DNA of 64,000 nucleotides from Clostridia bacterium (GTDB lineage: Bacteria; Bacillota; Clostridia; UMGS1810), in assembly GCA_017416845.1 (NCBI GenBank), contig JAFQBA010000100.1, positions 8,968 through 72,967 on the forward strand. Direction: 5' to 3'. The first letter of the stretch is position 1, and each line of letters opens with the position of its first letter. Below are positions 1 to 34,613 of the stretch, piece by piece. Position numbers and translations under genes: made by a program. The notes below the pieces were generated by a model that was given only the letters and a program-made list of their open reading frames with translations, made no database searches and was not told the origin of the DNA.

Positions 1-46
1 ATAACAAACGATAAAACTACACATAAAAATTTTTTCACTGTCATTT

Positions 47-1630: not shown

Positions 1631-1668
1631 ATACTCACCTCCCTTCAAAGTTAAAAATTTATAAATCT

Positions 1669-5802: not shown

Positions 5803-5815
5803 TTTTATTCTCCTG

Positions 5816-9979: not shown

Positions 9980-9993
9980 AATAGTCCTCCTCT

Positions 9994-12606
9994 CTATTTA
10001 TACAAAATGATATCCTTTATAGTTCCCTCATATGTTTTTATAATTATTTTGCTGCAATCAGAAGGGGACTGAAGATAAGTTTTTATCTCACTTATTGAAC
10101 CCTGATAAATTTCTTCGTATTTACTGTCATAAACGGTAATTGAAGAACTGATATTAAATCTGTATCTGCAAGAAGGCTCCGTCAGCCCCGAAGTTACTCC
10201 TGAAACGCTCTCAGGAACAAGGCTTATAAGATTGCCGTCTCTGTCGTAAACAATACCGTGATAATATGTTACTCTGTCAAGATGATTGATAAAATCAACA
10301 CTTACCTTACCCTCTTTACTGTCATAATCTTTGGACAGAGCATTTATATATCCTCTTGCGTCAAGATTATATCTGATATAATCACCGGGATTAACAGGAA
10401 TATTGTCAAAAGATGCATTTGTATCAATAGCCTTCAATACATCCTCGCTTTCAAGGAACAGTCTTTTATATGTACCTTTCAGATATACAACGATTGAAAC
10501 GGCTGTGGAATCATCCGGTGAAAGAGCCTGATTTGCAGAATACACCAAACCGTATGAAGAATCAGACGAAACCTTTTCTACACTTGAACCCGTTTTCACA
10601 ATAATGGCACCAACCTCACCGGTTTCAGTTACATCATACGCAAAAAGCTTTGATGGAGCAATGCTTTTGTTGGAGTCAAAATACGATGAGCCAACATATC
10701 TGTATCTTTGTGATTCTTCTACTCTGTCATCATCCACAATGGCAAAAACCTTTGTTTGGGGACTTATTTTAAAGTATGGATGAATCATTCTTGTCTCGGG
10801 TATATACCAGATTGTTGAATAAATATGCTGAGTCGGAAATTCATACAGGGTGAGATAGTTATTTTCCTGATTACCGTCTTCAAGAACACCGTTTTTAACA
10901 TCGTATACGATGCTCTTAATCTTTTTATCTGTTTTTATAGTATATCTGACAATTGTCTCACCGGTATTTTCCAGTTTTGAAAAAGCCTGTGCTTTGGACA
11001 TTGACTCTCCGTTTATAAAAACATTGTCGCAAAGCTCATATGCATCCGCTTTTCCGGAATCATCCAAAAGCTTGACATATACTGCGTCTGATAGTCCCGA
11101 ATCTTTTTTTACGGCAATGTAGTAGCCGTATTTTGATTTTGTTTCTCCCTTGATTGCTGTTCCGATTTCATTTGAACTTGATAATATTACCGTTATTTCA
11201 GAGCCCAATGAATAAAACATCAGTTCATTTTCTTCAAAAAACTTACTGTATTTATAGGCTACATCATTAATGTATAATTTTCTGTTTGCTTTATCTATGC
11301 CGGTGATTTTACCGTTTATTCTCTTGGCATCAATAACTCTTATGTATACAATATCTTTATTTCCGAGGGCAATTTGGACTTCTATTACATCAGATGAGAC
11401 AATGTCTGACAGCAGACATTCTGTGACCGACTTTTCTATACGGTATCTGCCATCTTCACTGCTTAAATCTATAATAGTTTTATCTTCGCAAAGAATCGTG
11501 TTGTCATATATATTAACTTCATTCACAACAAATAACCTTGCGTCTGATATACACACGACTTCATATTTGTTATCGTCATTATTATCAATAAAAGTGATTT
11601 TTCCCGAAACTGACAAAATGTCACTTAGTTTAAAATCAGACTCTGCACAGTTGTTAAATATAAATGCCGGGGATTTTATTAAACTTATACGCTTTTTGGA
11701 CCTGTCTTCATAGTATTCCACCTCTGCGTCATATATGTCCGAAACATCCTCGGCAGATATTGAAACCGAATTATTACCGGATTCATCGAGTGCCAGTATT
11801 TCATCAAAACCGCCACCCTTTTTGTAATAAACATCAACACATTTGCCGAGAAGATTAATATCTCTGCCGTTAAATTTATATGTAACATAATCTATGTCTA
11901 TATAGCCCTTATCACAAGCACTTGCCTGTTCATAAAGTCCGCTTAGCTGTGTTGCAGTTACTGTTGCATTTTCTTTAAACTCAATATTATGATATAGCTT
12001 TAAAACATTATCACCTATATCATATACAGTTTCATAATCATCGGAAGCATTTATTTTGATGGGTACACGGGTGTGAGCGTGCATAAAATTATATATAAGC
12101 TCCATTGCACCCTCATAAGAAAGTACCTCTGAAGATTCAACACCCATCAGCAAATCATTTCTCGTTGCAGCTATGTAATATCCGTTTGGATATCCCCCAT
12201 TTGCTATGGCATAATAATCAAGCCCCAGTGAAGAAACTGTAAGCTTACAGGCTTCATTAAATTTTATGGCACTGCCGGGATTAAACAAAGAAGCTTTTGA
12301 GATGATTTTCTGATTAAGCAAATAAACCAGTGCACCGTTATAATAGCTATCAGGTGAAACATCTTCAAACACCGCATCAGATGATGCTTCTCCTCTGTAT
12401 CCGATAAGCTGTGCAATAATGTAGGCAAACTCAGCCCTTGACAAATAATCAGTATTTTCAGATACAACATCTATACCGATTGAGTTTAAAATTTCTGCAG
12501 TTTTATGATCGTTTTGATAATCCTCATCCGATGCGTAAACACTGTTTATTAACATACAATTCATCATAATTACCGCAACACATATAAAGCTTAGTATTTT
12601 TTTCAA
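9994..12606 (-). CDS. Large secreted protein with one N-terminal SLH-like domain (paralogue of 37117..39696)
   Basis: ORF 9994..12630. The in-frame TTG at 12606 lies 9 nt after AGGAGG and gives MKKILSFICVAV..., a signal peptide. SLH-like stretch SRAEFAYIIAQLIGY...FEDVSPDSYY. Shares GGYPNGYYIAATRNDL with the 864-aa paralogue. Confidence 0.6.
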   Translation of the reverse strand: MKKILSFICVAVIMMNCMLINSVYASDEDYQNDHKTAEILNSIGIDVVSENTDYLSRAEFAYIIAQLIGYRGEASSDAVFEDVSPDSYYNGALVYLLNQKIISKASLFNPGSAIKFNEACKLTVSSLGLDYYAIANGGYPNGYYIAATRNDLLMGVESSEVLSYEGAMELIYNFMHAHTRVPIKINASDDYETVYDIGDNVLKLYHNIEFKENATVTATQLSGLYEQASACDKGYIDIDYVTYKFNGRDINLLGKCVDVYYKKGGGFDEILALDESGNNSVSISAEDVSDIYDAEVEYYEDRSKKRISLIKSPAFIFNNCAESDFKLSDILSVSGKITFIDNNDDNKYEVVCISDARLFVVNEVNIYDNTILCEDKTIIDLSSEDGRYRIEKSVTECLLSDIVSSDVIEVQIALGNKDIVYIRVIDAKRINGKITGIDKANRKLYINDVAYKYSKFFEENELMFYSLGSEITVILSSSNEIGTAIKGETKSKYGYYIAVKKDSGLSDAVYVKLLDDSGKADAYELCDNVFINGESMSKAQAFSKLENTGETIVRYTIKTDKKIKSIVYDVKNGVLEDGNQENNYLTLYEFPTQHIYSTIWYIPETRMIHPYFKISPQTKVFAIVDDDRVEESQRYRYVGSSYFDSNKSIAPSKLFAYDVTETGEVGAIIVKTGSSVEKVSSDSSYGLVYSANQALSPDDSTAVSIVVYLKGTYKRLFLESEDVLKAIDTNASFDNIPVNPGDYIRYNLDARGYINALSKDYDSKEGKVSVDFINHLDRVTYYHGIVYDRDGNLISLVPESVSGVTSGLTEPSCRYRFNISSSITVYDSKYEEIYQGSISEIKTYLQSPSDCSKIIIKTYEGTIKDIILYK

Positions 12607-12619
12607 TTCAACTCGCCTC

Positions 12620-14272
12620 CTATGCCACATTTAAAAGCTCCAAAAGACGGGCAATAACGGCTGCCGCCTCACCTCTTGTCATATTGTCAAGAGGTCGGAA
12701 ATAGCCTTCATATCCGTTTACTATTCCCTTGTTACTTGTATTTTTAACCGCTTCCCGTGCATAATCTGATATTAAATCGCCGTCATTATATGTTAATTCC
12801 CGGCTACTTGGCGAACCGCCTTCTTTCATAATTATGTTATTGATAATTACACATACATCCTGACGTGTTATGTTGTTTGCGGGATTAAAATAACCGTTAT
12901 ATCCTGAAACATATCCCTCTGACGCAGATGCAGCAACCGCATTATAAAACCAGTCTGAACCAGAGACATCTTCAAAAGCAATGTGTGAGCTTTGCGTGTT
13001 TAGTTTTAAAGCTTTTGAAATCATTGAAACAAATTCGGCTCTTGTTACAAATTTATCAGGTCTAAACGAATTGTCTTCATAGCCACTTATTATGTTTAAT
13101 GCCGCCATTTCCATAACATAGCTTTCGGAAAAATGTCCCGAAATATCTGTAAAAGTTATCTGCACTTCGCTTTTATTCTCGTTTTCTTCCGGTGTCTTAT
13201 TCAAAAAGCTGTTTGGTACAGTTACCGGATTTGATTTTGATGAGGATGATCCTCCACCGCCGGAAGATCCGGGATTGTCATTTATCTTGTCAAGAATCTT
13301 TTTAACCGCTCTGTCAAAAGCTTTTTTGAAATCACTGTATGATTTAATATCATCTTTTTTATCGAACAATTCAACAAAAACCTCATACTGTCGCTTGGAA
13401 GGAATATCTTCAAATTTTGAACTTTTGCCAACGTCTATGCCAATATCATCAGCTTTCAGCAGTGCATAATTTTTTATATCATTCCATGTCCCGGCACTTG
13501 TAAGCGATGCAACAGCCAGACATTCTGTAATTACATCATCAATTGATGCATCTTCGTTAGTGCTTTCCTCAATAAGTTTTTTGAACTGCCTGTCCAGATC
13601 ATCAGATATATCCGTAAGTATGTCCTCGTCAATATTTAACACATCATTATATTCGGCTATTACTTCTTCGGTATTCTCTCCGTTTATAAGCAGTGCATAT
13701 GCAGTTGACATTTTAGAACATTTAGCAATATTCAAAGGGGATTTGTCAGAACTGCGTGAAATTTCGTGATACAAAGCTTTGACAATCTCTTCTATATTAT
13801 TGCTGACCGATTCACTCTCTGCATCAATCCCCAGATGATTTGCATTACTTACGGCAAAATTCACAAATTCATCTTTATCGGATATTTTACATAATTCATC
13901 GCATATATCAATAGTTTCCTGCGATTTTATATTATGTATATAAACCTCAAGGCAATAGTGCTGTGATGATGTGTCGATGTAAACATAATTCCTCCCGCTT
14001 TCCAGATCCACGGGAAGCTTAATATCAACATCGAATATGTTATCATCGGGCATTTCATAGACCCATGCAAATTCAGGACAATTATCAAAAGAGAGTTTCC
14101 CGTCTTCATCAACAGAAACGGTAACAAGCTCATCCCCGGTTTCGCCCGCATCCAATTTCAAATTCAAAGACAAATCATCAGCTTTGAAGTTTGCAACAGG
14201 CTCTGCCGAAACAACGGTACAAATCAATGATATTATAATACCCGTTAACAGCATCACTATTTTTTTACACAT
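12620..14272 (-). CDS. S-layer homology (3x SLH) domain protein (paralogue of 39712..41397)
   Basis: Signal peptide, then a Gly/Ser linker (PGSSGGGGSSSSKS), then three C-terminal SLH repeats (FTDISGHFSESYV..., FEDVSGSDWFYNAV..., ISDYAREAVKNTSNKGIVNGY...TRGEAAAVIARLL). Confidence 0.8.
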   Translation of the reverse strand: MCKKIVMLLTGIIISLICTVVSAEPVANFKADDLSLNLKLDAGETGDELVTVSVDEDGKLSFDNCPEFAWVYEMPDDNIFDVDIKLPVDLESGRNYVYIDTSSQHYCLEVYIHNIKSQETIDICDELCKISDKDEFVNFAVSNANHLGIDAESESVSNNIEEIVKALYHEISRSSDKSPLNIAKCSKMSTAYALLINGENTEEVIAEYNDVLNIDEDILTDISDDLDRQFKKLIEESTNEDASIDDVITECLAVASLTSAGTWNDIKNYALLKADDIGIDVGKSSKFEDIPSKRQYEVFVELFDKKDDIKSYSDFKKAFDRAVKKILDKINDNPGSSGGGGSSSSKSNPVTVPNSFLNKTPEENENKSEVQITFTDISGHFSESYVMEMAALNIISGYEDNSFRPDKFVTRAEFVSMISKALKLNTQSSHIAFEDVSGSDWFYNAVAASASEGYVSGYNGYFNPANNITRQDVCVIINNIIMKEGGSPSSRELTYNDGDLISDYAREAVKNTSNKGIVNGYEGYFRPLDNMTRGEAAAVIARLLELLNVA

Positions 14273-14292
14273 ATCATTATCATCCTCTCATA

Positions 14293-16182
14293 TTATTTTT
14301 GCAGCCATATTGCCTGATAGCCGCATATCCGTGGTATATTTATTTTCGTTTTACCGTTCACAGCCTCGGTTTCAAGTTCCCGACGGCACGGTATTGCAAC
14401 GGCATTTTTAAATTCACCGTCAAGAATAATTTCAACATCTTTGGAAACGCTGTGTTCATTAATAACACCTATGCTTCCATGGTGTTCAGGATATGTTGTT
14501 TTAATATGTAATATGGTTCCGTTTTCTTTTTCCATCATTGTTATGCGAGAGGAATTCGGCAGATTGGTACTATCAACAAGTCTTTGCGGCAACAGTTTTT
14601 CTAAAACATATTCAACGAGTTCCCTGTGAAAAGCAGCCCCATATTTAAGATATGCCTCAAAAACATTAAATCCAATGTGTGCATGATTGTTTTTAAGTGC
14701 AACAGAACAATAGCCTTCACATTCTTTGTAGGGAATATATGCATAACCGTGAATTCCGTCATAATGACGATTAAAATACGGTTCAATATAATCACATACA
14801 CCAAAGGAACTTTTCATCTTTATACCGTTTGAGTACTGGGCATATACATCACCGTTAAACGAATAGAATCCGTCGGTATTCGTATCGTCGGTATATTCAT
14901 CTATATAATCCCATGTTTTACTCTTTGAAATGCTTTTGCCTGTTGAGAGAATTTTTCCGTCGTATGCATCAAGCTTTTTTTTAAGTGTTTCGGTTATAAG
15001 AATATTATCAGGCAAAACGATGAGCTTATATTTATTTAAATCCATATCTTCATTTACAATATCATAACAAATTTTAAATTCCGAAAGCATTCTTGCGGCG
15101 CCCTTATCAGAATCCGAAATTTGCTTCAGATAATTGTTATATGTAATTTTGTTTCTGACAATTGCCGCCTCTGTTACAGGAGTTGCATTTTGTGTCCATT
15201 CTTCCATCGAAGCAACAAATTCATATATTTCCGATACTGTTTTATATAAATTGTCATTCAATCCAAATCGGGGATGCATATGATCGCCCACCGAAGGAAC
15301 ATATCCGTACATCAATGCATCATACACATCATTTTCAATTGCAGTCCTGCTCTTAATGCCTCCGATGTCGCCCCATGTCTTAATAAATCTTCCGCACATA
15401 TAGATGTGGTCCCCTTCAAAATTCCTGTAATACGGAGCTGATGCGGCTATAAAATCATATCCCCACCATTGGCTATCTGTTGTTAAACACTCAAGTTCAA
15501 CATGGGTCAAACAATCATATATATCATCACAAGGATGACCGTTAAAAAACAGTCTTTTATCTGCAGGTACAACATCCCTTATGTCTTTAATGATATCTTT
15601 CAAAACAGAATGTGCAAACTTCAAAACATCTTCATCATTATCCACATCAAATCCCTGCTCTTTCATTTTGCTGACACACACAGGACAGTAACAGGGATTA
15701 ACTTTCATGCAGTCACAAAATATACCGTCGGGTTCTTTTTCAAGAATTTCCTTTATTTCGTCTAATAAATATCGTCTGTAACCCGAATTATAGCAGGGGG
15801 TTCTGAAGTAATTATCATTTACTCTGTCAGCTCCGTACACTGTTCCGTCTTTTTTTACAGACAAAAACTGGGGATTGTCCACAAGAGCCTGATGGTTAAG
15901 ACCACCATTCAGATATGCGGTAACACCAATATTTCTTTTATGACATTCATCAATCAAGTCACCGAGCAAATCCGTTTTCATATCCGGATAAGGTGTTCCT
16001 ATTTTCGTCGGATAATATGAAAATCCAATATTACATCTTGCACATACATTCACATAATCCACGTGTGCATCTTTTAACTTCCCGGCAACATCTGATGCCG
16101 AAAAAGAAAGTCCGAAATCGTCAATTCCCGGCAGTGTATGAAAATCGATATGAACAGCTCTTTTAATTTTGGTTGTAAACAT
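14293..16182 (-). CDS. Cytoplasmic glycoside-hydrolase-like protein (GHL6/GH42-like TIM-barrel type)
   Basis: ORF 14293..16239. Start moved to ATG at 16182 (MFTTKIK), with GAGAGGAA upstream. The N-terminal pattern HIDFHT..., YVNVCARCN.GFSYYPT, HKRNIGVTAYLN resembles putative glycosyl-hydrolase-like family 6 / beta-galactosidase-type proteins. The assignment is tentative. Confidence 0.4.
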   Translation of the reverse strand: MFTTKIKRAVHIDFHTLPGIDDFGLSFSASDVAGKLKDAHVDYVNVCARCNIGFSYYPTKIGTPYPDMKTDLLGDLIDECHKRNIGVTAYLNGGLNHQALVDNPQFLSVKKDGTVYGADRVNDNYFRTPCYNSGYRRYLLDEIKEILEKEPDGIFCDCMKVNPCYCPVCVSKMKEQGFDVDNDEDVLKFAHSVLKDIIKDIRDVVPADKRLFFNGHPCDDIYDCLTHVELECLTTDSQWWGYDFIAASAPYYRNFEGDHIYMCGRFIKTWGDIGGIKSRTAIENDVYDALMYGYVPSVGDHMHPRFGLNDNLYKTVSEIYEFVASMEEWTQNATPVTEAAIVRNKITYNNYLKQISDSDKGAARMLSEFKICYDIVNEDMDLNKYKLIVLPDNILITETLKKKLDAYDGKILSTGKSISKSKTWDYIDEYTDDTNTDGFYSFNGDVYAQYSNGIKMKSSFGVCDYIEPYFNRHYDGIHGYAYIPYKECEGYCSVALKNNHAHIGFNVFEAYLKYGAAFHRELVEYVLEKLLPQRLVDSTNLPNSSRITMMEKENGTILHIKTTYPEHHGSIGVINEHSVSKDVEIILDGEFKNAVAIPCRRELETEAVNGKTKINIPRICGYQAIWLQK

Positions 16183-16210
16183 ACTTGAATTCCTCTCTGT
16201 ATAAATTAAA

Positions 16211-16239
16211 TTGACAAAAGCTCCTATCAATGCTATCAT
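16211..16239 (+). promoter_or_regulatory. Candidate sigma-A promoter for the AraC-family gene
   Basis: TTGACA (16211-16216), exact 17-nt spacer, TATCAT (16234-16239), 124 nt upstream of the ATG at 16363. Confidence 0.4.
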
Positions 16240-17118: not shown

Positions 17119-17204
17119 AAAATACGCCATGTAATCTGATAATATAATCAATGATGTTTTACTATTTTTATATAAATATAAAGACCAAAAATGTAATTTA
17201 TGTA

Positions 17205-17237
17205 TTAACAATAGTCGCACCGATCAAAAACCGACCA
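17205..17237. repeat. Short repeat pair (TTAACAATAGTC + CAAAAACCGACCA), left copy
   Basis: The 12-mer at 17205-17216 and the 13-mer at 17225-17237 recur exactly at 17770-17781 and 17741-17753, on the same strand but in swapped order. Confidence 0.6.
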
Positions 17238-17296
17238 AATAAATTGGAATAGATCCGTCTGGTTCGGTATCAAATGACCGTTTTTTGGACATGACA

Positions 17297-17329
17297 AAAG
17301 CCTTGCCGTTATTAAAACGACAAGGCTTT
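17297..17329 (-). terminator. Stem-loop directly following a 10-nt tRNA 3'-end-like sequence
   Basis: AAAGCCTTGCCGTT / ACGACAAGGCTTT hairpin. On the minus strand it follows CCTGCACCCA and is followed by TTTTG. The arms are homologous to the hairpin at 34563-34603. Confidence 0.5.
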
Positions 17330-17334
17330 CCTTG

Positions 17335-17603
17335 TGGGTGCAGGATTGCCTTCTTCCGACTTTAAATACCCAATTTCAAACTTTTGCTCTTCGCCAAATC
17401 AACGACCTTTCGGGTTGCGGTTCTCGAATCAAGGCACTCACCCTCACAGGGTGTATGCCTTATCTTCGACCGCTGCCCCTTTTGTGCCTCCCTTCATCTT
17501 CCGCCGGAAGCGGTCGGCACAAAACAAGTTATTCGCCCGCCGTCGGGCTCAAATACCCGGAGCGTGGCGGTTACTCCAAAACTCCGACACTTGCATGCAA
17601 CAA
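17335..17603. ncRNA. GC-rich, highly structured ~270-nt segment of unknown class (candidate ncRNA or relic of an older integrated element)
   Basis: Much more GC-rich than its surroundings and open in five reading frames in the ORF track. Bracketed by two terminator hairpins. Local stems: 17433-17459, 17498-17510, 17535-17548. Crossing complementarity: CGACCGC 17467-73 / GCGGTCG 17510-16, and GTGCC 17484-88 / GGCAC 17516-20. Confidence 0.35.
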
Positions 17604-17638
17604 AAAATTCCTCGGTCTTTTGACCAAGGAATTTTTTT
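17602..17638. terminator. Bidirectional rho-independent terminator
   Basis: AAAAAATTCCTCGGTC-TTTT-GACCAAGGAATTTTTTT, an A-run and T-run flanking an 11-bp stem. On the minus strand it lies immediately 3' of the tRNA fragment. Confidence 0.7.
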
Positions 17639-17683
17639 GGGTGCAGGGGCCGGATTTGAACCAACGACCTCCGGGTTATGAGC
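17638..17683 (-). pseudogene. Truncated initiator tRNA-Met (CAU) 3' half; probable att-site remnant
   Basis: The minus strand reads GCTCATAACCCGGAGGTCGTTGGTTCAAATCCGGCCCCTGCACCCA. This covers the anticodon loop CTCATAA, the CCC side of the initiator-type anticodon stem, the T-arm, an acceptor 3' strand ending in A72, and CCA. It is nearly identical to the 3' half of E. coli and B. subtilis tRNA-fMet as I remember them. The upstream 33 nt cannot form an acceptor or D-arm. Confidence 0.75.
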
Positions 17684-17740
17684 TGATAGAATAAACCCGC
17701 TCTTAAAATCGATGTACTGGACAAAACGGATATCGATATT

Positions 17741-17781
17741 CAAAAACCGACCATAAAACCGACCAATCATTAACAATAGTC
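17741..17781. repeat. Short repeat pair, right copy, with an extra AAACCGACCA
   Basis: CAAAAACCGACCA at 17741-17753, AAACCGACCA again at 17756-17765, and TTAACAATAGTC at 17770-17781. These are possible arm-type integrase sites. Confidence 0.5.
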
Positions 17782-17932: not shown

Positions 17933-18703
17933 TTAATTTATAGTACCATTCTTTATATGATATGCTATATTGTGTTTTTCGCAGAAATCAACAACCACGT
18001 TAGCCGTTTTGTTAAAGAACTCTTTATGTCTCTTATATTCCGAAGCTTTTTTATTGTAATGAATTCTCCCAAAAATTATTTTATCACAAAAACTAACAGC
18101 CTCAAGGATATCGTTAATATTTTGATCTATAAAATTCGGAGTTGGATATGGTTCTATGCTTACCCAGGTCTTGCATCCAAATTCATGTAAAGTTCTTAAT
18201 GCCTGAATCCTTTCATCAAAGGGTACCGAATTAGGCTCATACTCTTTTCTGAATTCTTCATTTAAAGAAATTAAAGTTATCCCATATTCGTTATCTGAAG
18301 ATAATTTCATAAGTTCTTCAGGTAAAATACCTTTAGTTAAAACTGTACACTTTATCCCTGCAGTGTTAAGCTTTTGGATGGCCTTGATGCTCATCTTAGA
18401 TATCTCATCATATCCATACATAAACGGATCCGTAGTGAAACATAGATGAACTGATTTGATTTTATCTTTCAGTTTAGGAATTTCTTTATCTAACAGCTCT
18501 AATGTATTTGAAACCAAATATGGTTCTATCCAATCCTCATAGCAACCGACTTGACCAAAACGTTTTTTTTGCAAATATGCATAACATGGAAATTTACAGC
18601 CATGTGCACAACCCAAAACATGGTTCATAGTATAATCCCCATATTCTACACCTGTAACATAAAGCATGGTCTTTCGCTCTATATATCCTTTGACCTGTTT
18701 CAC
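17933..18703 (-). CDS. Radical-SAM/SPL-like protein with atypical CX3CX3C motif (three-Cys-motif partner of TcmP)
   Basis: GTG start 7 nt after GGAGGTG, overlapping the TcmP stop (GTGA). Motif GCAHGCKFPCYAY. Downstream pattern resembles SplB-type TIM-barrel radical SAM proteins (LCFTTDPF, TVLTKG, YEPNSVPFDERIQALRTLHEFGC, SIEPYP). Confidence 0.55.
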   Translation of the reverse strand: MKQVKGYIERKTMLYVTGVEYGDYTMNHVLGCAHGCKFPCYAYLQKKRFGQVGCYEDWIEPYLVSNTLELLDKEIPKLKDKIKSVHLCFTTDPFMYGYDEISKMSIKAIQKLNTAGIKCTVLTKGILPEELMKLSSDNEYGITLISLNEEFRKEYEPNSVPFDERIQALRTLHEFGCKTWVSIEPYPTPNFIDQNINDILEAVSFCDKIIFGRIHYNKKASEYKRHKEFFNKTANVVVDFCEKHNIAYHIKNGTIN

Positions 18704-19950
18704 GCTTTACACCTCCTCAATGTAATGGTCTTATCTTTACATTCTTCCCAAAATGCAGATTTTTTTCCGTTTTTTCTATGAGCAGGATTTCGCAAAATTT
18801 GCAGTTCTTTTTTTTGTTCTAAAATAGTTAAACTATCATATATCATTTTAAAATCACAGATTAGTCCGTACTCATTAACAAAAGATGCTATATATTCCGT
18901 TAATCCAATTTCGTTATAACCTTTAAGATGCTGCGAAACCTTTTCGGCAATTTCTTCTATTGTTATCAAATCACCTTCCCCAGTAGAAGAACATCCTGTT
19001 AGCATATCAAAAATTGTAAATTGTCCATCTTGTTGAATATTTAAAAACAATTCTTCTTTTCGCTTCTGCATATTTTGAGCCATCAAAAAGCAACCATCCC
19101 TATGGTTACAAACATGCATCATTCGATATTTAGGTCTTTGTCCTTCCTTTAAGCGAATAGGCAAATCAAGAACATATGAAAAAAATTTTTTTAATTGTTG
19201 TTTATACCTTTCAGATAATATTTGTTCAGCTTTATAACCATCAAACTTACCAGCTTTATAATCTTTTACAATATCTTTCCAATAATCTCCACCAGCTATT
19301 GAATTTAACAATACTTCTGATTGAGCATTTGTGTCAACAGTCATAGGGTCATATTCAATCAAATCTTCCAATGAATTCAAAGCTGCATCATTACTATAAT
19401 TAACCCTCATAACTCTGCATGCATCGCGGAAAAAGCCAAAAGAATTGAAGTTTATTAACATTTCAAATGAATTAAACCCTAATGTTTTGAACTTTTTGAA
19501 CAATTCAAAATTTAGTGCTTTTATTCCGTATGGATCTATGTAAAGAAAAACATTATAATTATCTTTATCTGAAAGGCACTTTAAAATTGTTTCTTCATAT
19601 TTACCGGATATTATATTGGCATCTCCATAATTAGAAATGAAGGTGGCAACGTTTTGTTGCAATTCGACGGCATGATCTGACTCAATAAAACAAGGTTGTA
19701 TAGCACCATTCTTAAAGGAAATATTAGCTCTTTTTAAGCAATCTTCTCTAACTTTTAATGCAATCAGAGGTGAACCATCATTGCCATCTTCAAATTTTCC
19801 TTTTCCAGCAAAACAATCTACATAATATATGGGTTTCTTTGTCATAAGAACTTTTTGAAAATATGGTGATAAATAGCAACCCAAAAGTTTATCTTTTATA
19901 ACAGACCAATCGTTTTTCTCTTTAAAGAAATCAGAATTATTTTTTGACAT
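18700..19950 (-). CDS. tcmP: Three-Cys-motif partner protein TcmP-like (methyltransferase-fold N-terminus)
   Basis: The N-terminal pattern W..IK...L..YL..Y......K.IYYVDCFAGKGKF.DG..GSPLIAL matches my recollection of the TcmP family, with a D.FAG.G SAM-motif-I-like element. TAGGAG RBS. Translationally coupled to the CX3CX3C gene. Confidence 0.55.
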   Translation of the reverse strand: MSKNNSDFFKEKNDWSVIKDKLLGCYLSPYFQKVLMTKKPIYYVDCFAGKGKFEDGNDGSPLIALKVREDCLKRANISFKNGAIQPCFIESDHAVELQQNVATFISNYGDANIISGKYEETILKCLSDKDNYNVFLYIDPYGIKALNFELFKKFKTLGFNSFEMLINFNSFGFFRDACRVMRVNYSNDAALNSLEDLIEYDPMTVDTNAQSEVLLNSIAGGDYWKDIVKDYKAGKFDGYKAEQILSERYKQQLKKFFSYVLDLPIRLKEGQRPKYRMMHVCNHRDGCFLMAQNMQKRKEELFLNIQQDGQFTIFDMLTGCSSTGEGDLITIEEIAEKVSQHLKGYNEIGLTEYIASFVNEYGLICDFKMIYDSLTILEQKKELQILRNPAHRKNGKKSAFWEECKDKTITLRRCKA

Positions 19951-20259
19951 TAATAATCAACTCCTACATTAATTTATCTCAATATCATCAATCACTAAAC
20001 ACCTTATCAATGACATCACAAATATTACAATAGATATGATACAACAGCGAAGACTAAATTTATTCAAATTAAAGTTTACCATTTCCATCAATAATTTTCA
20101 TCATCACAGAAATTTACGATTTCAATAACTAATCAGCAAGATACTTCATCGTATCTGATTAAATCACCTTCAAGTTCCGTAAGCGATTCGTCAAAATCGG
20201 CATATTTATAAACTCGCTTATATTATGTGCCAACTTGATTTTTCTGTTTTATCAGGTTA

Positions 20260-20772
20260 TTATAGTTTAATCTTTCCTGCATCGTTTGATATATCTTGAT
20301 ATGGTTCCCCAGGCTGCTCCGACCAAAATTTATTTATATCAAATTCATGCTCCTCTAACTTACTATGTAAATTTGTGATACGGATAAGATCACTTTTATA
20401 GTCTCTTGCTGAGCGACTATTTAGTAATTCTGTAATTTGTCTTATGTTACAGCTTCTTACTAATTCACCTTCTAAGTTTGGTACCTGCGGGATCGTAATT
20501 ACACTAGATATATAAGAACAATCTTTTAATTTTTTCATATTTCTTTTTAAGATTTCTACATTGTTTGTATCAGTATCAAATATTAATACAACAATAGTTC
20601 CCTGCTTTAAAGGTCTTAGGTGCGCATCTTTAATCAGTTCTTGTAACACATTTAGTTTTTGTAATTTTCCCGGAGCTATAACTTTCATAGTATTTTTAAG
20701 GGTGTCAACAAGTTTTTTCTCATCTTCCCCTTCAACATAATACTGAACTATTTGTTTCTTCATTAGTGTCAC
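20260..20772 (-). CDS. Small Toprim-like protein (RloB/DUF4276-type), partner of the upstream ATPase
   Basis: Conserved acidic pattern YYVEGEDEKKLV then VLIFDTDTNN (E ... DxD, Toprim-like). The start overlaps the ATPase stop (GTGA; an alternative ATG lies 9 nt downstream). Confidence 0.45.
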   Translation of the reverse strand: MTLMKKQIVQYYVEGEDEKKLVDTLKNTMKVIAPGKLQKLNVLQELIKDAHLRPLKQGTIVVLIFDTDTNNVEILKRNMKKLKDCSYISSVITIPQVPNLEGELVRSCNIRQITELLNSRSARDYKSDLIRITNLHSKLEEHEFDINKFWSEQPGEPYQDISNDAGKIKL

Positions 20773-21893
20773 CCCTCATCATCTGTATTAATAATATCAT
20801 AAATAAGCTCCAGAGCAGGTGATACTGAAAATGCATCATTTTCTACAGCATTTCTTAAGGAATCAGTATTACGCTTCAGATAAGAAGAAGCATTTACAGG
20901 TTTGATTGTAGTCTCAGGATCTGTAACATCTTTACGTAAAAATGTAAATGTGTGCTTAGGAAGATTCATATCTAAAACATCTGTATTGTGAGTTGTAAAG
21001 AACAGTTGATCGTTTTCGCCTACATATTCAATCATCACAGATAAGATAGCTTTTTCTATGTCACTATGAATATATGAAAATTTTTCATCACAGTAATAAA
21101 AATGATAGTCTTTCTGAATCAAAGATGAAAGCATTGTAGACACTTCAATCCCAGCCTTCGTTCCACTAGAAAGAAAATCTGTAGTTAATAAGTCTCCATC
21201 CTGAATTACAATGGACTTATTTTGGAGATGTATTACGTATGCGTTATCAACATCTTGTGATATCTTAACTTCCTTGATAGATGGATCCAAAGCTTTTAAT
21301 ACATTTTCAAGAACTTGACGAAATTTCTCATCTTTATTTGGCAATTTTAATTTATTCGGGTGATCTTCCGGATACTGAAAAAACCACGATAATTCTTCAA
21401 TCTTTTCAAGCTCGTCTACATAGTTTTCTGACGAATAAAAATCTTTGTTTTCTATTCTTTCTACGCAAGATTCGTAGCTGTCTTTGACTCTAATATTTTC
21501 CTGAATTATCTGTACTTTAATATGACTAGATTGGTAATTTCCATCTGCACATGGTTCTACTACACATATTACCCTATAAAAAACTTGACTGTTTGAAGCA
21601 AGGTCTAAGGTAAATGAAGCTTCCTTGCTAGTATCACAAATTACCGAGGTGATATAACTGTAATTTTTTTGGCTGATGAAATTAAAAATTTTCATCAAAA
21701 TTCGTCCAAAAGTCGTTTTCCCGGATGCATTAGCACCAAAAAACACATTGACTTTTTTGTATCTGAAATTACTGCGTCCTGCTAAATGTTCATCCTGTAT
21801 ATATGATCCTACGATCTTTTTAGGATACGTTAAATTCATTTGAAAGTTTCTAAATGCATAAAAATTATCTAAACACACATTCAATACAACCAT
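20769..21893 (-). CDS. AAA_21/ABC-type ATPase of a split OLD/AbiL/PARIS-like pair
   Basis: ORF 20769..21929. Start moved to ATG at 21893, after AAGGAGG. Walker A is GANASGKTT. Walker B / D-loop-like element is YYCDEKFSYIH. The C-terminal FFTTHNTDVL is typical of this ATPase group. Confidence 0.6.
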   Translation of the reverse strand: MVVLNVCLDNFYAFRNFQMNLTYPKKIVGSYIQDEHLAGRSNFRYKKVNVFFGANASGKTTFGRILMKIFNFISQKNYSYITSVICDTSKEASFTLDLASNSQVFYRVICVVEPCADGNYQSSHIKVQIIQENIRVKDSYESCVERIENKDFYSSENYVDELEKIEELSWFFQYPEDHPNKLKLPNKDEKFRQVLENVLKALDPSIKEVKISQDVDNAYVIHLQNKSIVIQDGDLLTTDFLSSGTKAGIEVSTMLSSLIQKDYHFYYCDEKFSYIHSDIEKAILSVMIEYVGENDQLFFTTHNTDVLDMNLPKHTFTFLRKDVTDPETTIKPVNASSYLKRNTDSLRNAVENDAFSVSPALELIYDIINTDDEG

Positions 21894-22261
21894 TTTGTGC
21901 CTCCTTCGATTTATTTCTTCGTGTTTCACGAAATAATCTCCTTTCTGTTATTCTACATTAAATATTTAAAAAATGCAATACTATATTTAAATTTATTTCC
22001 ATTTTTCTTTAATTTATATATATAATATCCCTTTAGGTATTCATTTATTATTAATAATGATAATAAATATGATTATTTGATGTCATGCATTCTTCGTTTT
22101 AGTATATACAATTAAATTATACACTAAAACTAAAAATATAACTCCTATAAATTTAACAAAAACGAACGCATCCCAATCACTTGTCACAGCTATATTTGAC
22201 CCATATTCCAGGTGAAAAACCAAGTAATATAGCCTAAAATTAATTTTTACAATTTAGTTAC

Positions 22262-22303
22262 AAAAAAGACAACCGATAGTAGCTTATGTATGCTACTATC
22301 GGT
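22262..22303 (-). terminator. Rho-independent terminator of the integrase gene
   Basis: Perfect 12-bp stem ACCGATAGTAGC / GCTACTATCGGT with an 8-nt loop, followed on the minus strand by TCTTTTTTG. It lies 35 nt downstream of the int stop. Confidence 0.75.
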
Positions 22304-22337
22304 CTCTTCATGTTTTGTTGACTATTGAATTTTAAAC

Positions 22338-23474
22338 TTACGCTCTATGCAGAACTATTGAATCAAGCTTTGCCGCAGCTTCCTCATCCATCTCAGGTAA
22401 TACATGTGTGTAAGTATTAAGGGTTATATTTACATCTGAGTGTCCTAATCTTTGCTGAACCACTCTTGGGTTAACGCCTGCCTGGATAAGTGCCGTTGCA
22501 TTACTATGACGAAGATCGTGCAAACGTATTCTTGGCAATCCCCTACTTTCAAGGAATCTTGTCCATTTTCTTGTCATTGAATCGGGTTTAAGGGGAGAAC
22601 CGTCTTCCTGACGTATAACAAATCCAAGGTTCTGAAATCCAACTCCATAAGACAACATATCTTTTGTATATTCTTTCTTGGCAAGTTCCAATTCCTTCAT
22701 AACATCATCACCAAGATGGATGTCACGTATACCCGACTCTGTTTTGGGTGCTTTAATGATGAATCCTTTTTCGCCACGCACCATATTTCTTCTTACTTTG
22801 AGGATATTCTTTTTAAAATCAATATCCTCCCAACGCAGTGCAAGAAGTTCTCCTCGTCTTAAGCCTACAGTTAATAATATTAAAATTGGCAAATACATAT
22901 CTGTACCTTTGGCTTCGTCAAGCAAGCTATACATCATTTTCGGGGAGTATACTTCCGCTTTGTATCTCTTTCTTTTTGGAAGAGATACGCCTTCACATGG
23001 ATTGTAAGGAATGAGTCGTATCTTTACAGCAAGCTTCATCGCCGCATTGACATTATTGAATGTATCCCTAATATTTTTGGGAGATAAGCCTTTAGCAATC
23101 ATTTCATTAACCATCCCTTGAACATGTTCAGCTCTTAATGCCTGTATCAGAATATCACCAATGGCGGGTTTAATGTAACATCTTATCTTACTCTTATACC
23201 CTACTCTTGTTGTTTCTTCTACATTGGAAAGGTATGAATCAACCCACTCATCCATCCATTGACCTATAGTCTTGTCTGTTCTCTTTGTAGTTATTCCTTG
23301 TTCCATTTCTGTAATCATTTTGTGCATTACAGACTTAGCTTCTTTCTTACTACCTTTAACCGTCTTGTATGCTCTGATACGTTTGCCGGTTAATTCATCA
23401 TAGCCACCCTCTACAGTAACTTGATAACTAATACCCGATTTTGTTCTCTTCTCTCTTATGTTACCTGTTGCCAT
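22338..23474 (-). CDS. int: Tyrosine-type site-specific integrase with N-terminal arm-binding domain
   Basis: C-terminal catalytic pattern HDLRHSNATALIQAGVNPRVVQQRLGHSDVNITLNTYTH. R in LRRGELLAL. N-terminal KSGISYQVTVEGGYD..TGKRIR resembles an AP2-like arm-binding domain. AAAGGAG RBS. Confidence 0.9.
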   Translation of the reverse strand: MATGNIREKRTKSGISYQVTVEGGYDELTGKRIRAYKTVKGSKKEAKSVMHKMITEMEQGITTKRTDKTIGQWMDEWVDSYLSNVEETTRVGYKSKIRCYIKPAIGDILIQALRAEHVQGMVNEMIAKGLSPKNIRDTFNNVNAAMKLAVKIRLIPYNPCEGVSLPKRKRYKAEVYSPKMMYSLLDEAKGTDMYLPILILLTVGLRRGELLALRWEDIDFKKNILKVRRNMVRGEKGFIIKAPKTESGIRDIHLGDDVMKELELAKKEYTKDMLSYGVGFQNLGFVIRQEDGSPLKPDSMTRKWTRFLESRGLPRIRLHDLRHSNATALIQAGVNPRVVQQRLGHSDVNITLNTYTHVLPEMDEEAAAKLDSIVLHRA

Positions 23475-23479
23475 ATTTT

Positions 23480-23698
23480 CTATCTCCTTTCTACTATTTG
23501 ATATACAGGTCTTTGTTTCAACTTTTTCTTTACCGATTTTGACGGATACAGCACTTCGTTAAGCTTGCTTTCAAGAACTCTGTACTGCCTACCTACGGTA
23601 ACATACTCAACCTTGTCCTTAACAAAGTTTAAAGCAGTATCATAGGATACCTTTAGTAGTTCTGCTACTTCACTTACTGTTAAATATCTATCTTTCAT
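23480..23698 (-). CDS. Excisionase-family helix-turn-helix DNA-binding protein
   Basis: 72 aa, YLTVSEVAELLKVSYDTALNFVK...GRQYRV, immediately upstream of int. GAGGAG RBS. Confidence 0.65.
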   Translation of the reverse strand: MKDRYLTVSEVAELLKVSYDTALNFVKDKVEYVTVGRQYRVLESKLNEVLYPSKSVKKKLKQRPVYQIVERR

Positions 23699-34517: not shown

Positions 34518-34562
34518 TGGCTGTTGTAACCACTTTCTGGTTTAACCTTACACAAAGGAAAA

Positions 34563-34613
34563 AGCCTTGCCGTTCAATTCAAACTGAAAAGAATGACAAG
34601 GCTATATTTTTTT
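34563..34613. terminator. Bidirectional terminator hairpin at the right edge of the element
   Basis: AGCCTTGCCGTTC / GAATGACAAGGCT stem, preceded by AAAAA and followed by ATATTTTTTT. The arms are homologous to the hairpin at 17297-17329. Confidence 0.6.

Follow-up and report, generated by a model that had tools for sequence, protein, structure and literature searches.

Proteobacteria and streptococci are well-studied sources of dispersed structured repeats; to our knowledge such repeats have hardly been catalogued in the abundant and mostly uncultured Clostridia of the gut and the rumen. The repeat analyzed here, family A, is an uncatalogued interspersed repeat of about 130 nt in Oscillospiraceae-type Clostridia and their phages, and a literature search found no description of it. 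Like the REP, BIME and REPIN elements of E. coli and Pseudomonas it is GC-rich, folded and intergenic, reaches tens of copies per replicon, usually lacks a target-site duplication and forms mosaics with small palindromes. BLAST places it at 27 positions in the 861-kb replicon of Vescimonas fastidiosa, which is chromosome-like in that it carries dnaA, gyrB and tRNA synthetase genes, and in this organism copies are nested among hairpins of the GTAGGGGCGGAC type. However, REPs are simple imperfect palindromes of 20-40 nt and REPINs are inverted doublets, whereas family A is a non-palindromic fold of two domains with conserved internal loops that also occurs inside phage genomes; hence it agrees with the REP/REPIN class in its high copy number and departs from it in its unit. 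The ERIC/IRU elements of enterobacteria and the BOX, RUP and SPRITE elements of Streptococcus pneumoniae, which are intergenic, about 100-300 nt long and co-transcribed with their neighbors with effects of orientation, share with family A both stable folding and modularity. Nevertheless, there is no sequence relation, and these elements are long imperfect palindromes or box modules, whereas the helices of family A are kept by covariation across species and phages, and its transcription is something that we infer.

Family A also resembles the Correia and NEMIS MITEs in being small, non-coding and multi-copy, in its presence/absence differences between close relatives and in that it may sit in transcripts. 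Unlike these, its dispersed copies show neither of the hallmarks of a MITE, i.e. terminal inverted repeats and a target-site duplication of fixed length, and the direct repeats at its tRNA-linked copies are 10-30-nt pieces of the tRNA itself. The PATEs of the IS200/IS605 elements and the TnpB omega-RNAs are structured, multi-copy non-coding modules of about 100-150 nt without target duplication, and, as in these, the conservation of family A stops abruptly at a fixed 3' boundary (ACCGCAA-S-R-G-G). Yet family A yields no Rfam match to IS605-orfB or HEARO, its orientation seems to track transcription somewhat better than replication, and the ORF lists around the examined copies, which carry no domain assignments, contain no recurring large ORF adjoining them. 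Lastly, tyrosine integrases reportedly leave scars and tandem islets in tRNA genes, with sublocations in the anticodon loop and the T loop, as Williams is said to have described in 2002. The flanks of our copy are of this kind, with a 46-nt 3' half of a tRNA after an integrase and its cargo, a further decayed 3' half downstream, and a repeat whose length varies by species, each version matching the host's own tRNA. Ordinary integration scars, in contrast, lack both a conserved, covarying 130-nt fold that recurs at non-tRNA sites and an antisense copy of the anticodon arm.

The window, i.e. the whole 64-kb stretch of DNA that was analyzed, contains family A within a GC-rich stretch at 17335-17603, which the earlier note had taken for a single structured segment of about 270 nt. 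GC-rich and structured it is, but it is a composite and not one RNA gene, comprising a 133-nt repeat copy and tRNA-derived flanks. Its parts and surroundings, in window coordinates, are:

17297-17329, minus strand: terminator-type hairpin, a 14-bp stem followed by UUUUGU (inverted repeat I13, fold and sequence)
17335-17344, minus strand: CCTGCACCCA, the last 10 nt of the tRNA-fMet of the clade (direct repeat D11)
17345-17396, minus strand: AT-richer insert of 52 nt in the duplicated tRNA half, in place of its T loop and T-stem 3' strand
17397-17416, minus strand: AACCCGAAAGGTCGTTGATT, tRNA-fMet positions 37-56 in decayed sense form (aligned locally with tRNA-fMet of L010)
17409-17541, minus strand: family A repeat copy of 133 nt (covariance model R1, 89.2 bits, E = 7e-22, a score that follows in part from construction, the copy being among the 17 seed sequences of the model)
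17535-17548, minus strand: P1 hairpin of family A, straddling the 5' edge of the repeat copy
17516-17524 with 17480-17488, minus strand: family A helix P2
17498-17510, minus strand: P3 hairpin of family A
17469-17473 with 17417-17421, minus strand: family A helix P4
17465-17468 with 17425-17428, minus strand: family A helix P5
17429-17464, minus strand: variable tip of family A
17541-17562, minus strand: CTCCGGGTATTTGAGCCCGACG, antisense copy of the tRNA-fMet anticodon arm and D-stem junction (aligned locally with the tRNA's reverse complement)
17563-17601, minus strand: antisense pseudo-tRNA possibly continuing here into its T arm and acceptor part (by eye, weak similarity)
17602-17638, no strand assigned: bidirectional intrinsic terminator, a 16-bp stem with an A tract before and a T tract after it (inverted repeat I7 and fold)
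17638-17683, minus strand: 3' half of an initiator tRNA-Met, from the anticodon loop to CCA (BLAST to annotated tRNA-Met genes)
17743-17781, no strand assigned: repeated motifs AAAACCGACCA(T/A), twice, and ATTAACAATAGTC (direct repeats D3, D6 and D10)
17933-23698, minus strand: near end of a genomic island (Pfam and PADLOC scans)
22338-23474, minus strand: tyrosine integrase gene of the island
23480-23698, minus strand: HTH_17 excisionase-like gene of the island

Several properties that the earlier note had read from the letters are borne out. The GC content is 0.49-0.57 in 200-nt segments over 17300-17699 against a mean of 0.378 for the window, and the seven most GC-rich 250-nt segments of the entire 64 kb all fall in this region. 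For 17290-17650 the minus strand has a folding energy of -150.2 kcal/mol as compared to -109.2 +/- 5.3 for shuffled sequences (z = -7.8) and the plus strand gives z = -5.9, both values taking in the two terminator hairpins, which indeed bracket the stretch as the note had it. ORFs cross it in three plus and two minus frames, matching the claimed openness in five frames; the three local helices that it named are P1 (17535-17548), P3 (17498-17510) and a hairpin in the variable tip (17433-17459) of the family model; and the 10 nt that it saw shared with the tRNA fragment (TGGGTGCAGG) occur in the window only at 17335 and 17638. Metagenome contigs end at both edges of a block at approximately 17257-17695, as expected where the block is a repeat.

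The absence of tmRNA, RNase P, SRP RNA and T-box signatures was likewise upheld. ARAGORN finds no tRNA gene and no tmRNA in the 64-kb window, and Rfam 15, whose scope includes RNase P, SRP, 6S, T-box, riboswitches, group I and II introns, known ribozymes, HEARO, IS605-orfB and ROOL/GOLLD, yields no match at the gathering score in the window and chance matches only at E<=10 around the region; its tmRNA model gives only a 6-bit chance match elsewhere. Rfam was equally silent on ten loci with canonical copies, and on a canonical copy with permissive filters. The stretch is tmRNA-like in being non-coding, beside a tRNA site and ending in a tRNA-like CCA, but it has no acceptor stem, T arm or tag ORF: its 5' end cannot pair with CCUGCA, the 52-nt insert takes the place of the T arm, and the CCA end belongs to a decayed tRNA-fMet duplicate. 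A tRNA-like RNA or an intron-bearing tRNA-fMet was also rejected, since no acceptor or T stem is possible, the 5' piece is antisense and most copies have no nearby tRNA; 17638-17683 and 17335-17416 are tRNA fragments that form no complete cloverleaf. The same goes for a primer-binding site antisense to a tRNA 3' end, as the duplicates are sense and no adjoining reverse transcriptase was seen in the lists of neighboring ORFs.

Model R1 matches the window once, at 17409-17541 on the minus strand, over its full length and with all helices intact. What defines the family is a P2 containing tandem G.A pairs, a P3 of 5 bp closed by a triloop, GCGGU...ACCGCAA carrying a 3-nt bulge, and a tip that varies. 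Searches for relatives, which the earlier note had called for, recovered copies in other Clostridia MAGs, in Vescimonas and in phage contigs, those of L018, L123, L127 and L130 having first been found independently by nhmmer. R1 gives 32 further matches in the 29 sources searched, 6 more in Vescimonas and 5 more in phage contigs, and a degenerate structural pattern matches 15 IMG/VR stretches. Most copies lie far from any tRNA; clusters of copies occur at integration hot spots beside tRNA genes. Between species with divergent tRNA T arms the core shares identical blocks of 32-42 nt. In some cases a copy lies inside the loop of another GC-rich palindrome, others stand in tandem (L123 and L160), and in some domain 1 is found alone or with another second domain; the L125 copy is visibly degenerate (37.6 bits). 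A copy is present in five related phage stretches (L166-L170), while the same place holds a different insert in L171 and no insert in L172, with neighboring proteins that are 94% and 82% identical in this comparison. GenBank phages contain no family A copy; a similarity search of phage and plasmid collections with the window sequence matched the tRNA half alone; exact 18-21-mers gave nothing or chance coding matches in IMG/VR, and a 20-mer gave no match in the JGI metagenomes. Relatives of the integrase in IMG/VR and metagenomes are all <=36% identical and none comes with the element.

The core is an unclassified structured element with strong covariation. Examination of the fold shows that: 1) Domain 1 is a helix that contains an interruption of tandem G.A pairs and ends in a triloop hairpin of 5 bp. 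2) Domain 2 consists of an invariant GCGGU/ACCGC helix, a 3-nt bulge, a helix of 4-10 bp and a variable tip, which measures 36, 28, 22, 18 or 20 nt. 3) Conserved unpaired nucleotides occupy a CA/AA internal loop, a GGY bulge, the tandem G.A and an NGY triloop. 4) RNAalifold on a plain MAFFT alignment, i.e. one made from sequence only, predicts 25 pairs, 13 of which show compensatory changes. In that alignment 96.0% of the cells pair, against 80% with shuffled partners and 35-55% with slid partners, and the covariation score is 0.42 versus 0.13. 5) In a model-fitted alignment of 26 distinct copies 95.8% of the cells are paired and 18 of the 25 pairs are double-changed. 6) The helix cells contain 9 G.U as against 4 A.C. 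The crossing complementarities which the earlier note had offered as pseudoknots or alternative folds fare differently: 17484-88 with 17516-20 lies in helix P2 and is conserved in the family, whereas 17467-73 with 17510-16 is present in this copy but not conserved in the family. A pseudoknot from the latter is not supported, because GCGGU pairs with the downstream ACCGC (17417-21) in every member and the upstream partner is absent in half of them. As a separate matter, compensatory changes in hairpins could also arise by template switching at the DNA level in quasi-palindromes, without selection on RNA.

All copies are intergenic, and approximately 19 of 21 distinct loci have the copy in the same orientation as its neighbors. 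In the annotated Vescimonas genome six of the seven full copies run with the genes beside them, and two of the six oppose the direction of replication; near the origin, orientation agrees with transcription in 6/7 and with replication in about 5/7, and seven copies are too few to separate the two. The same orientation prevails among phage and tRNA-linked copies, the exceptions numbering two in all. The neighbors are diverse (gyrB, glyQS, ferredoxin, dnaD, phage genes, tRNAs), with no common gene class, and ORF lists within 3.5 kb of the examined copies, taken without domain assignments, show no recurring large neighbor. Expression of the window copy would need read-through from the tRNA fragment, since a strong terminator, with no promoter-like site, stands directly upstream; moreover, the island has cut the tRNA fragment off from its own promoter side. 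No transposase, terminal inverted repeat or target-site duplication was found at the dispersed copies. A flanking direct repeat of at least 9 nt is absent at four of the seven full Vescimonas copies and at most phage copies, two of the remaining three Vescimonas repeats are 9 nt long and no better than shuffles, and the alignments of copies contain no terminal inverted repeat. For this reason mobility is deduced only from the presence/absence differences and the tandem copies.

The flanks have a different origin. At two related loci (L018 and L010) intact tRNA-Leu and tRNA-Met(CAT) genes are followed by a terminator and then by the repeat; in the window the fragment at 17638-17683 is identical to the 3' half of the intact L010 gene, and the terminator at 17602-17638 travels with the repeat unit, being conserved in L010, L011 and L018. 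A decayed direct duplicate of the 3' half of the tRNA terminates in the sequence at 17335-17344. This duplicated 3' end amounts to 10 nt in the window (a flanking repeat as long appears in 1 of 100 shuffles); L018 has 23 nt, L123 30 nt and L127 16 nt, in every case without a mismatch to the tRNA-fMet of the locus. Thus the flanks display what defines an att scar, namely inserted DNA bounded by a direct repeat that copies the 3' portion of the targeted tRNA and matches the host's own. The piece at 17397-17416, which corresponds to the anticodon stem (3' strand), the variable loop and the T stem (5' strand), shares sequence with the repeat copy at the latter's 3' end, and 3 of 200 shuffles score equally in its alignment; in the second L127 copy the T loop is interrupted by an insert of about 62 nt, analogous to the 52-nt one. 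None of 200 shuffles equals the antisense match at 17541-17562, and an antisense copy of the anticodon arm is present in every family copy at tRNA-fMet loci, reaching 58 nt in L130. Together with the tRNA fragment, 17563-17601 would possibly make a large imperfect palindrome centered on the terminator, as it appears from comparing the letters; in L130 the palindrome is explicit, with 27 nt exact. The order of CCA and then terminator recurs in other copies. The hairpin at 17297-17329 closes the unit and resembles the terminator found 3' of the tRNA 3' end at related loci.

The 46-nt tRNA half comes after the integrase in eight islands (L123, L125, L127, L130, L135, L140, L141 and L143), and the order of integrase, cargo and tRNA half is common to the relatives. 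Besides the integrase and the excisionase-like gene, the near end of the window island encodes a radical-SAM protein with a PDC-M30/M41-like protein and an AbiL-like ATPase pair; the neighboring ORFs of 416 and 256 aa were considered as istA/istB of IS21 and turned out, by Pfam and PADLOC, to be the radical-SAM defense-type pair. The repeat unit lies outside the island. In L127, where the island is bounded by an intact tRNA (2367-2442) and the tRNA half (11258-11302), it sits outside the attL/attR pair, beyond attR, which eliminates the unit as island cargo or as a part of attP. A mini integrative element moved by the island integrase is also unlikely, as the flanking repeats in L123 lack the anticodon-loop core. 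In the same slot two loci (L130 and L141) have an unrelated GC-rich filler, 'family B', and in three more (L135, L140 and L143) it is empty. The motifs AAAACCGACCA(T/A) and ATTAACAATAGTC recur at 17204-17238, GGTCGG-type motifs occupy matching positions in L123, L125, L127 and L135, and the motifs at 17743-17781 are candidate arm-type binding sites of the integrase. AAAAGCCTTGCCGTT occurs at 17296 and 34560, as a candidate mark of the island ends.

The data directly show the membership in the family, its fold, its copy number and its bias of orientation, as well as the tRNA origin of the flanks and the location of the unit outside the island. We consider it probable, though with moderate confidence, that the core of this composite stretch is a dispersed folded repeat of the REP/ERIC/BOX kind, co-transcribed with its neighbors, and that its tRNA-fMet flanks are scars. 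The repeat would not be an independent gene but would ride in sense orientation in host and phage transcripts, as REP/BIME, ERIC and BOX do, and would spread and reshuffle as a discrete DNA module. Probably it acts, if at all, as a passive structured module in RNA stability, processing or insulation. Against passivity it may be observed that the conserved unpaired nucleotides exceed the needs of a passive hairpin and hint at a specific partner or activity. The window copy would belong to a subfamily that directly follows the initiator tRNA gene with its terminator. Originally the elements would have stood in the order tRNA-Leu, tRNA-fMet, terminator, repeat, decayed second copy of the tRNA 3' half and a further terminator. 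The two tRNA flanks, antisense on one side and sense on the other, would then be scars of recombination or duplication at a heavily used integration site. An island of about 17 kb with integrase and defense cargo may later have entered the anticodon loop of tRNA-fMet, leaving the 3' tRNA half and the repeat unit on its attR side. In the window, ARAGORN detects no complete tRNA-fMet where the far end of the island would lie, and the history of this locus is consequently not fully reconstructed.

It is rather unlikely, though worth keeping in view, that family A represents a novel functional class of structured RNA, perhaps one that processes itself or recruits a protein, or the RNA or single-stranded DNA form of a new kind of non-autonomous mobile element, spread among Oscillospiraceae genomes by phages and tRNA-targeting islands. 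Were this so, the antisense copies of the anticodon arm in all members linked to tRNA-fMet would stem from a genuine interaction with the gene of the initiator tRNA or with its att site. The former version specifically, a functional RNA class with a partner or an activity (a protein-binding scaffold, a processing signal or a new self-cleaving ribozyme) that is multi-copy because it is useful and not selfish, we regard as unlikely. The strong covariation and invariant unpaired nucleotides, the sense orientation, the lack of a matching Rfam family and the copies between phage structural genes, a distribution typical of small ribozymes, would all suit it; yet the neighbors belong to no common gene class, close phage relatives manage without a copy, domain 1 can stand alone or with a different second domain, and there are some 27 places in 861 kb.

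Quite unlikely, in our estimate, is action as DNA, with the repeat, as a folded single strand or as duplex, serving as a substrate of recombination or transposition (the end of a non-autonomous IS200/IS605-like element, a site resembling attC, or a Y1 transposase target of the REPIN kind) and the apparent RNA fold being that of single-stranded DNA. The scarcity of target-site duplications at dispersed copies, as in IS200/IS605 and REPs, is what such an element would show, and so are the nesting in palindromes, the polymorphism with its different insert at one spot in a related phage, and the clustering at tRNA-side hot spots; the excess of G.U over A.C is small, and G.T is tolerated in single-stranded DNA. 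On the other hand, orientation agrees slightly more often with transcription than with replication in the few copies near the Vescimonas origin, no large ORF recurs in the lists mentioned above, and the two domains are unlike each other, unlike the left-end and right-end hairpins of IS200/605.

That the whole 270 nt is a decaying, functionless scar of older islands and tRNA duplicates with chance structure is very improbable. The decayed tRNA-fMet pieces in both orientations with their odd insertions, the family B filler, the empty slots and the degenerate L125 copy speak for decay, whereas the identical core blocks between species with differing T arms, the many copies far from tRNAs and the helices kept through compensatory changes do not; this explanation is largely refuted for the core and stands for 17335-17408 and 17542-17601. 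The two options of the earlier note are thus each half right: the element is structured and unclassified, having covariation and no Rfam match, though as a dispersed family it is no single-copy gene tied to a tRNA integration site, and 'relic of an older element' fits the outer parts and not the conserved, covarying core. Coding sequence, be it decayed, spurious or a gene for a small protein, is hardly credible even though ORFs of 75-120 aa cross the stretch and one phage copy has an ATG-initiated frame of 33 codons with a CxxC motif running into the element, for the five ORFs have no Pfam match (best E = 0.044, below the family cut-off), so that the refuting match to a known gene was not found, gene callers annotate nothing at the stretch in public contigs, stem variation is compensatory and the tip lengths differ by non-multiples of three.

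Among dispersed structured repeats family A stands out by its unusually clean covariation, its conserved non-helical nucleotides, its copies in both hosts and phages and its lack of an Rfam entry. A model of the family would remove recurrent spurious ORFs and contig breaks in metagenome assemblies. The locus itself illustrates how an initiator-tRNA hot spot gathers islands with swappable defense cargo, tRNA fragments in two orientations and small GC-rich fillers. As at least one host, Vescimonas fastidiosa MM35, is cultured, it can be tested whether such repeats act as RNA.

The stretch at 17335-17603 has a GC content of 0.49-0.57 in 200-nt windows against an average of 0.378 for the window, and the seven 250-nt windows with the highest GC content in the 64 kb all lie within it. 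Three plus and two minus frames are open across it, and the minus strand of 17290-17650 folds with an MFE of -150.2 kcal/mol, where dinucleotide shuffles give -109.2 +/- 5.3 (z = -7.8; plus strand z = -5.9). A hairpin with A and T tracts lies on either side, and the window has TGGGTGCAGG at just two positions, 17335 and 17638. The earlier note had thus read the sequence correctly in describing a heavily structured segment, far more GC-rich than its surroundings, open in five frames, bracketed by two terminators and ending on the minus strand in the same 10 nt as the tRNA-fMet fragment. It had also found no signature of tmRNA, RNase P, SRP RNA or T-box, and with this the database searches of the window agree: ARAGORN detected neither tRNA nor tmRNA, and Rfam 15 returned nothing at the gathering score and chance matches only at E<=10. 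The features on which the argument draws are these:

17297-17329: hairpin with flanking A and T tracts
17397-17416: AACCCGAAAGGTCGTTGATT, matching tRNA-fMet positions 37-56, on the 3' side of the repeat copy
17409-17541, minus strand: copy of a structured repeat, here termed family A
17516-24/17480-88: helix P2 of this copy
17498-17510: helix P3
17469-73/17417-21: helix P4
17465-68/17425-28: helix P5
17429-64: variable tip
17541-17562: CTCCGGGTATTTGAGCCCGACG, matching the reverse complement of the anticodon arm and D-stem junction, on the 5' side (0 of 200 shuffles score as well)
17602-17638: hairpin with flanking A and T tracts
17638-17683, minus strand: initiator tRNA-Met half, from anticodon loop to CCA
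17933-19950: radical-SAM and PDC-M30/M41-like gene pair, defence-type cargo between integrase and tRNA half
20260-21929: AbiL-like ATPase pair, defence-type cargo in the same interval
22338-23474: tyrosine integrase with arm-binding domain, in the integrated element right of the stretch
23480-23698: HTH_17 excisionase-like gene

Relatives of the core, which the earlier note had suggested seeking, were recovered from Clostridia MAGs, IMG/VR stretches and Vescimonas fastidiosa. A 19-mer of the core searched in species-representative genomes led to two Clostridia MAGs; a degenerate pattern drawn from both conserved termini of domain 2 (AGCGGTCRAA, 22-44 nt, TTYGGGYACCGCAA) retrieved 15 IMG/VR stretches; and BLAST with three diverged cores hit 27 places in one PLSDB record, V. 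fastidiosa pMM35_01. This 861-kb record is chromosome-like, as it carries dnaA, dnaN, gyrB/A, rpmH-rnpA and many tRNA synthetase genes. A covariance model of the family, R1, gave 33 matches in the first 29 sources, with a single one in the window (89.2 bits, E = 7e-22), and further matches in 150 kb of Vescimonas (6) and in phage contigs (5). The census is based on about 30 distinct copies. Family A is in no Rfam 15 family, no canonical copy matches any Rfam family, and literature searches found no description of it. Two repeat-carrying IMG/VR contigs do contain Rfam matches elsewhere, namely pemK RNA (L155 5484-5547, 72.8 bits) and DUF3800-VIII RNA (L148 7078-7143, 47.2 bits). Vescimonas and related phage DNA is also rich in other small GC-rich palindromes (such as GTAGGGGCGGAC...GTCCGCCCCTAC and GGGGCCGATG...CATCGGCCCC; L162 30000-30500 and 36100-36400; L153), and two family A copies are located within the loop of such a hairpin.

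The copies share a fold of two domains. In domain 1, P2 (3-14 bp) is followed by a tandem G.A/A.G step, 2-3 more pairs and an internal loop (1 x 5) rich in purines, and is capped by P3, a hairpin of 5 bp and an NGY triloop. Domain 2 comprises a covarying S-S pair, a CA/AA internal loop, an invariant GCGGU/ACCGC helix, a 3-nt GGY bulge, helix P5 (4-10 bp) and a variable tip. Covariation analysis, likewise proposed in the earlier note, supports this fold: from 17 diverse copies aligned by plain MAFFT, RNAalifold predicted 25 pairs, and compensatory changes occur in 13 of these. The crossing pairing of 17467-73 with 17510-16 that the note had envisaged is unsupported, since its GCGGU pairs with ACCGC in every member and in half of the family the upstream partner is GAAGCG.

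Support for the family A fold in three alignments (cells paired; cells paired with shuffled partners; with slid partners; pairs double-changed; covariation score against shuffled)
MAFFT, 17 diverse copies: 96.0%; 80.1%; 35-55%; 13/25; 0.42 vs 0.13
Model-fitted, 26 distinct copies, biased to structure by construction: 95.8%; 78.2%; 36-56%; 18/25; 0.39 vs 0.12
Hand-made, 6 copies, biased to structure by construction: 99.5%; 81.2%; 37-52%; 16/37; 0.39 vs 0.12

The related loci place the element outside the island. In one MAG (L018) the order is tRNA-Leu, tRNA-Met(CAT), terminator, element, a perfect 23-nt repeat of the tRNA 3' end and a terminator; its core shares identical blocks of 32 and 42 nt with that of the window, one hairpin being entirely replaced. 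In the other, L010 shows tRNA-Leu, tRNA-Met, terminator and element, the contig terminating within the element, and a second copy (L011) adjoins a truncated relative of the window integrase. Islands retrieved via close integrase homologues (67-97% identical) all have the order int, optional cargo, 46-nt tRNA-fMet half, and diverged elements lie beyond the tRNA half in L125 and L130, in L123 (as two units in tandem) and in L127 (as two copies separated by 9 kb). L127 has both island ends: its intact tRNA-Met (2367-2442) is followed by its own terminator with no element, and the element is located beyond the tRNA half (11258-11302). Hence the element is chromosomal, downstream of the original tRNA gene, and not part of the island. 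Downstream of the L127 unit (11610-11700) there is a series of short GC hairpins with ATGAAGC or ATGAAAC in front of each (for example, ATGAAGCGCACCTTGCGGTGC and ATGAAGCCGCCCTGCGGGCT). A second GC-rich element unrelated to family A, family B, occupies the same slot after tRNA-fMet and terminator (L130 7390-7590; L141 8340-8540); it starts with an antisense copy of the host tRNA CCGRAGGTCATG, following the host G/A difference, and ends in a T loop-to-CCA copy in L130 and in a shorter piece resembling the T loop in L141. Initiator tRNA in this clade has the 3' end ...CCCUGCA-C-CCA, with U69 and discriminator C (L010 172-248; L018 5459-5534; window 17638-17683); the usual CCCCGCA-A-CCA is present in Monoglobus (L005) and L127.

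The flanks of the window copy are tRNA-fMet debris. On the 3' side, AACCCGAAAGGTCGTTGATT is followed by 52 unrelated nt in place of the T loop and then by the last 10 nt of the tRNA. On the 5' side, the antisense piece CTCCGGGTATTTGAGCCCGACG has a counterpart in every tRNA-fMet-linked copy; in L130 this spans 58 nt (27 nt exact) and forms a large palindrome with the shared bidirectional terminator at its centre. Partially duplicated pieces of other tRNAs lie on either side of further copies (L160, tRNA-Pro 5' half; L161, tRNA-Leu 5' 22 nt; L158, tRNA-Trp T loop). As no flanking direct repeats were found at most dispersed copies, such repeats reflect events at tRNA integration sites rather than the insertion chemistry of the family itself.

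The element behaves as an exchangeable module. Five related phage contigs carry a copy between the same gene pair, and two relatives lack it there: L171 (neighbour protein 94% identical) has a different insert of ~330 nt at its position, and L172 (82% identical) has no insert. A 17-22-nt repeat, GCTTCGCGGCTGCGCCG, flanks the phage inserts. It is single in the empty-site phage and brackets both differing inserts at one intergenic spot (L166 1880-2330 vs L171, L172; phage-locus alignment A6), perhaps a small cassette site or hot spot for recombination. Copies are in tandem in L123 and L160, and domain 1 is found with other partners too.

The core belongs to an interspersed family of structured intergenic repeats, most likely of the REP/ERIC/BOX kind, as copy number, the lack of a common neighbour gene class, presence or absence in close relatives and modularity indicate. 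The alternatives offered in the earlier note, an unclassified structured RNA or a relic, each hold in part: the core is a covarying fold without an Rfam family and the flanks are tRNA-fMet debris, and a dedicated RNA gene is disfavoured. Among known kinds, the core comes closest to REP/BIME/REPIN, ERIC, BOX and Correia-type repeats, and the flanks to the integrase scar at tRNA genes. Unlike simple palindromic repeats, family A has a non-palindromic two-domain fold with compensatory changes across species and phages, and unlike MITEs it has neither TIRs nor target-site duplications.

With 9 G.U against 4 A.C helix cells there is a mild preference for the minus strand of the window. In annotated Vescimonas, 6/7 full copies run in the direction of the relevant flanking gene or of both, with two on the strand opposing replication direction (right replichore), and the copy at L164 19291-19428 runs against its neighbours. 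Co-orientation also holds for the three phage contexts, for five of six tRNA contexts and for the copies linked to integrases, making about 19/21 distinct loci by our own count, several via our own ORF calls. Orientation bias and covariation together suggest relevance as part of sense transcripts; the element would be carried in these, may affect RNA stability or processing, and would spread or be reshuffled as a DNA module. The conserved unpaired nucleotides hint at a possible, more specific role in protein binding, processing or catalysis, and the lack of target duplications, together with the nesting inside other palindromes, would also be compatible with a mechanism at the DNA level. The window copy itself may be silent, because it has a strong terminator directly upstream without a promoter-like site and the island separates it from the tRNA promoter.

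The integrated element also has DUF669-like and DUF1643 genes. Its interval from integrase to tRNA half on the attR side is a swappable cargo slot (window 17933-23698; L125, L130, L140, L143), filled in relatives by AAA_14/DUF4143, Abi_2 with HTH, or type I restriction-modification N6_Mtase with Methylase_S, or empty. Left of the stretch lie an AraC-type regulator and SLH/glycoside-hydrolase genes. The chromosomal flanks (1-16239 and 34739-60298) are long series of very large genes, of which the few scanned include genes for an SLH-domain protein and for GHL6, GH88 and BNR-repeat proteins; they resemble cell-surface polysaccharide-degrading loci of Monoglobus-like Clostridia. ARAGORN found no intact tRNA-fMet, expected at the far island end, in the window. 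Public metagenome contigs with the left flank end at 17286 or 17311 and those with the island at 17641 or 17666; by our own arithmetic these breakpoints, at k = 31 and k ~55, would fit a single repeated block at ~17257-17695. A 15-nt direct repeat, AAAAGCCTTGCCGTT, occurs at 17296-17310, inside a hairpin at the unit's left edge, and at 34560-34574, inside a similar hairpin just beyond the final island-like genes. Two motifs, ATTAACAATAGTC and AAAACCGACCAA, lie on both sides of the tRNA half/terminator/repeat block (17204-17238, 17743-17781) in swapped order and look like candidate arm-type integrase sites. If they are such sites, an attP-like arrangement would have been kept here, with the repeat unit inserted into it.
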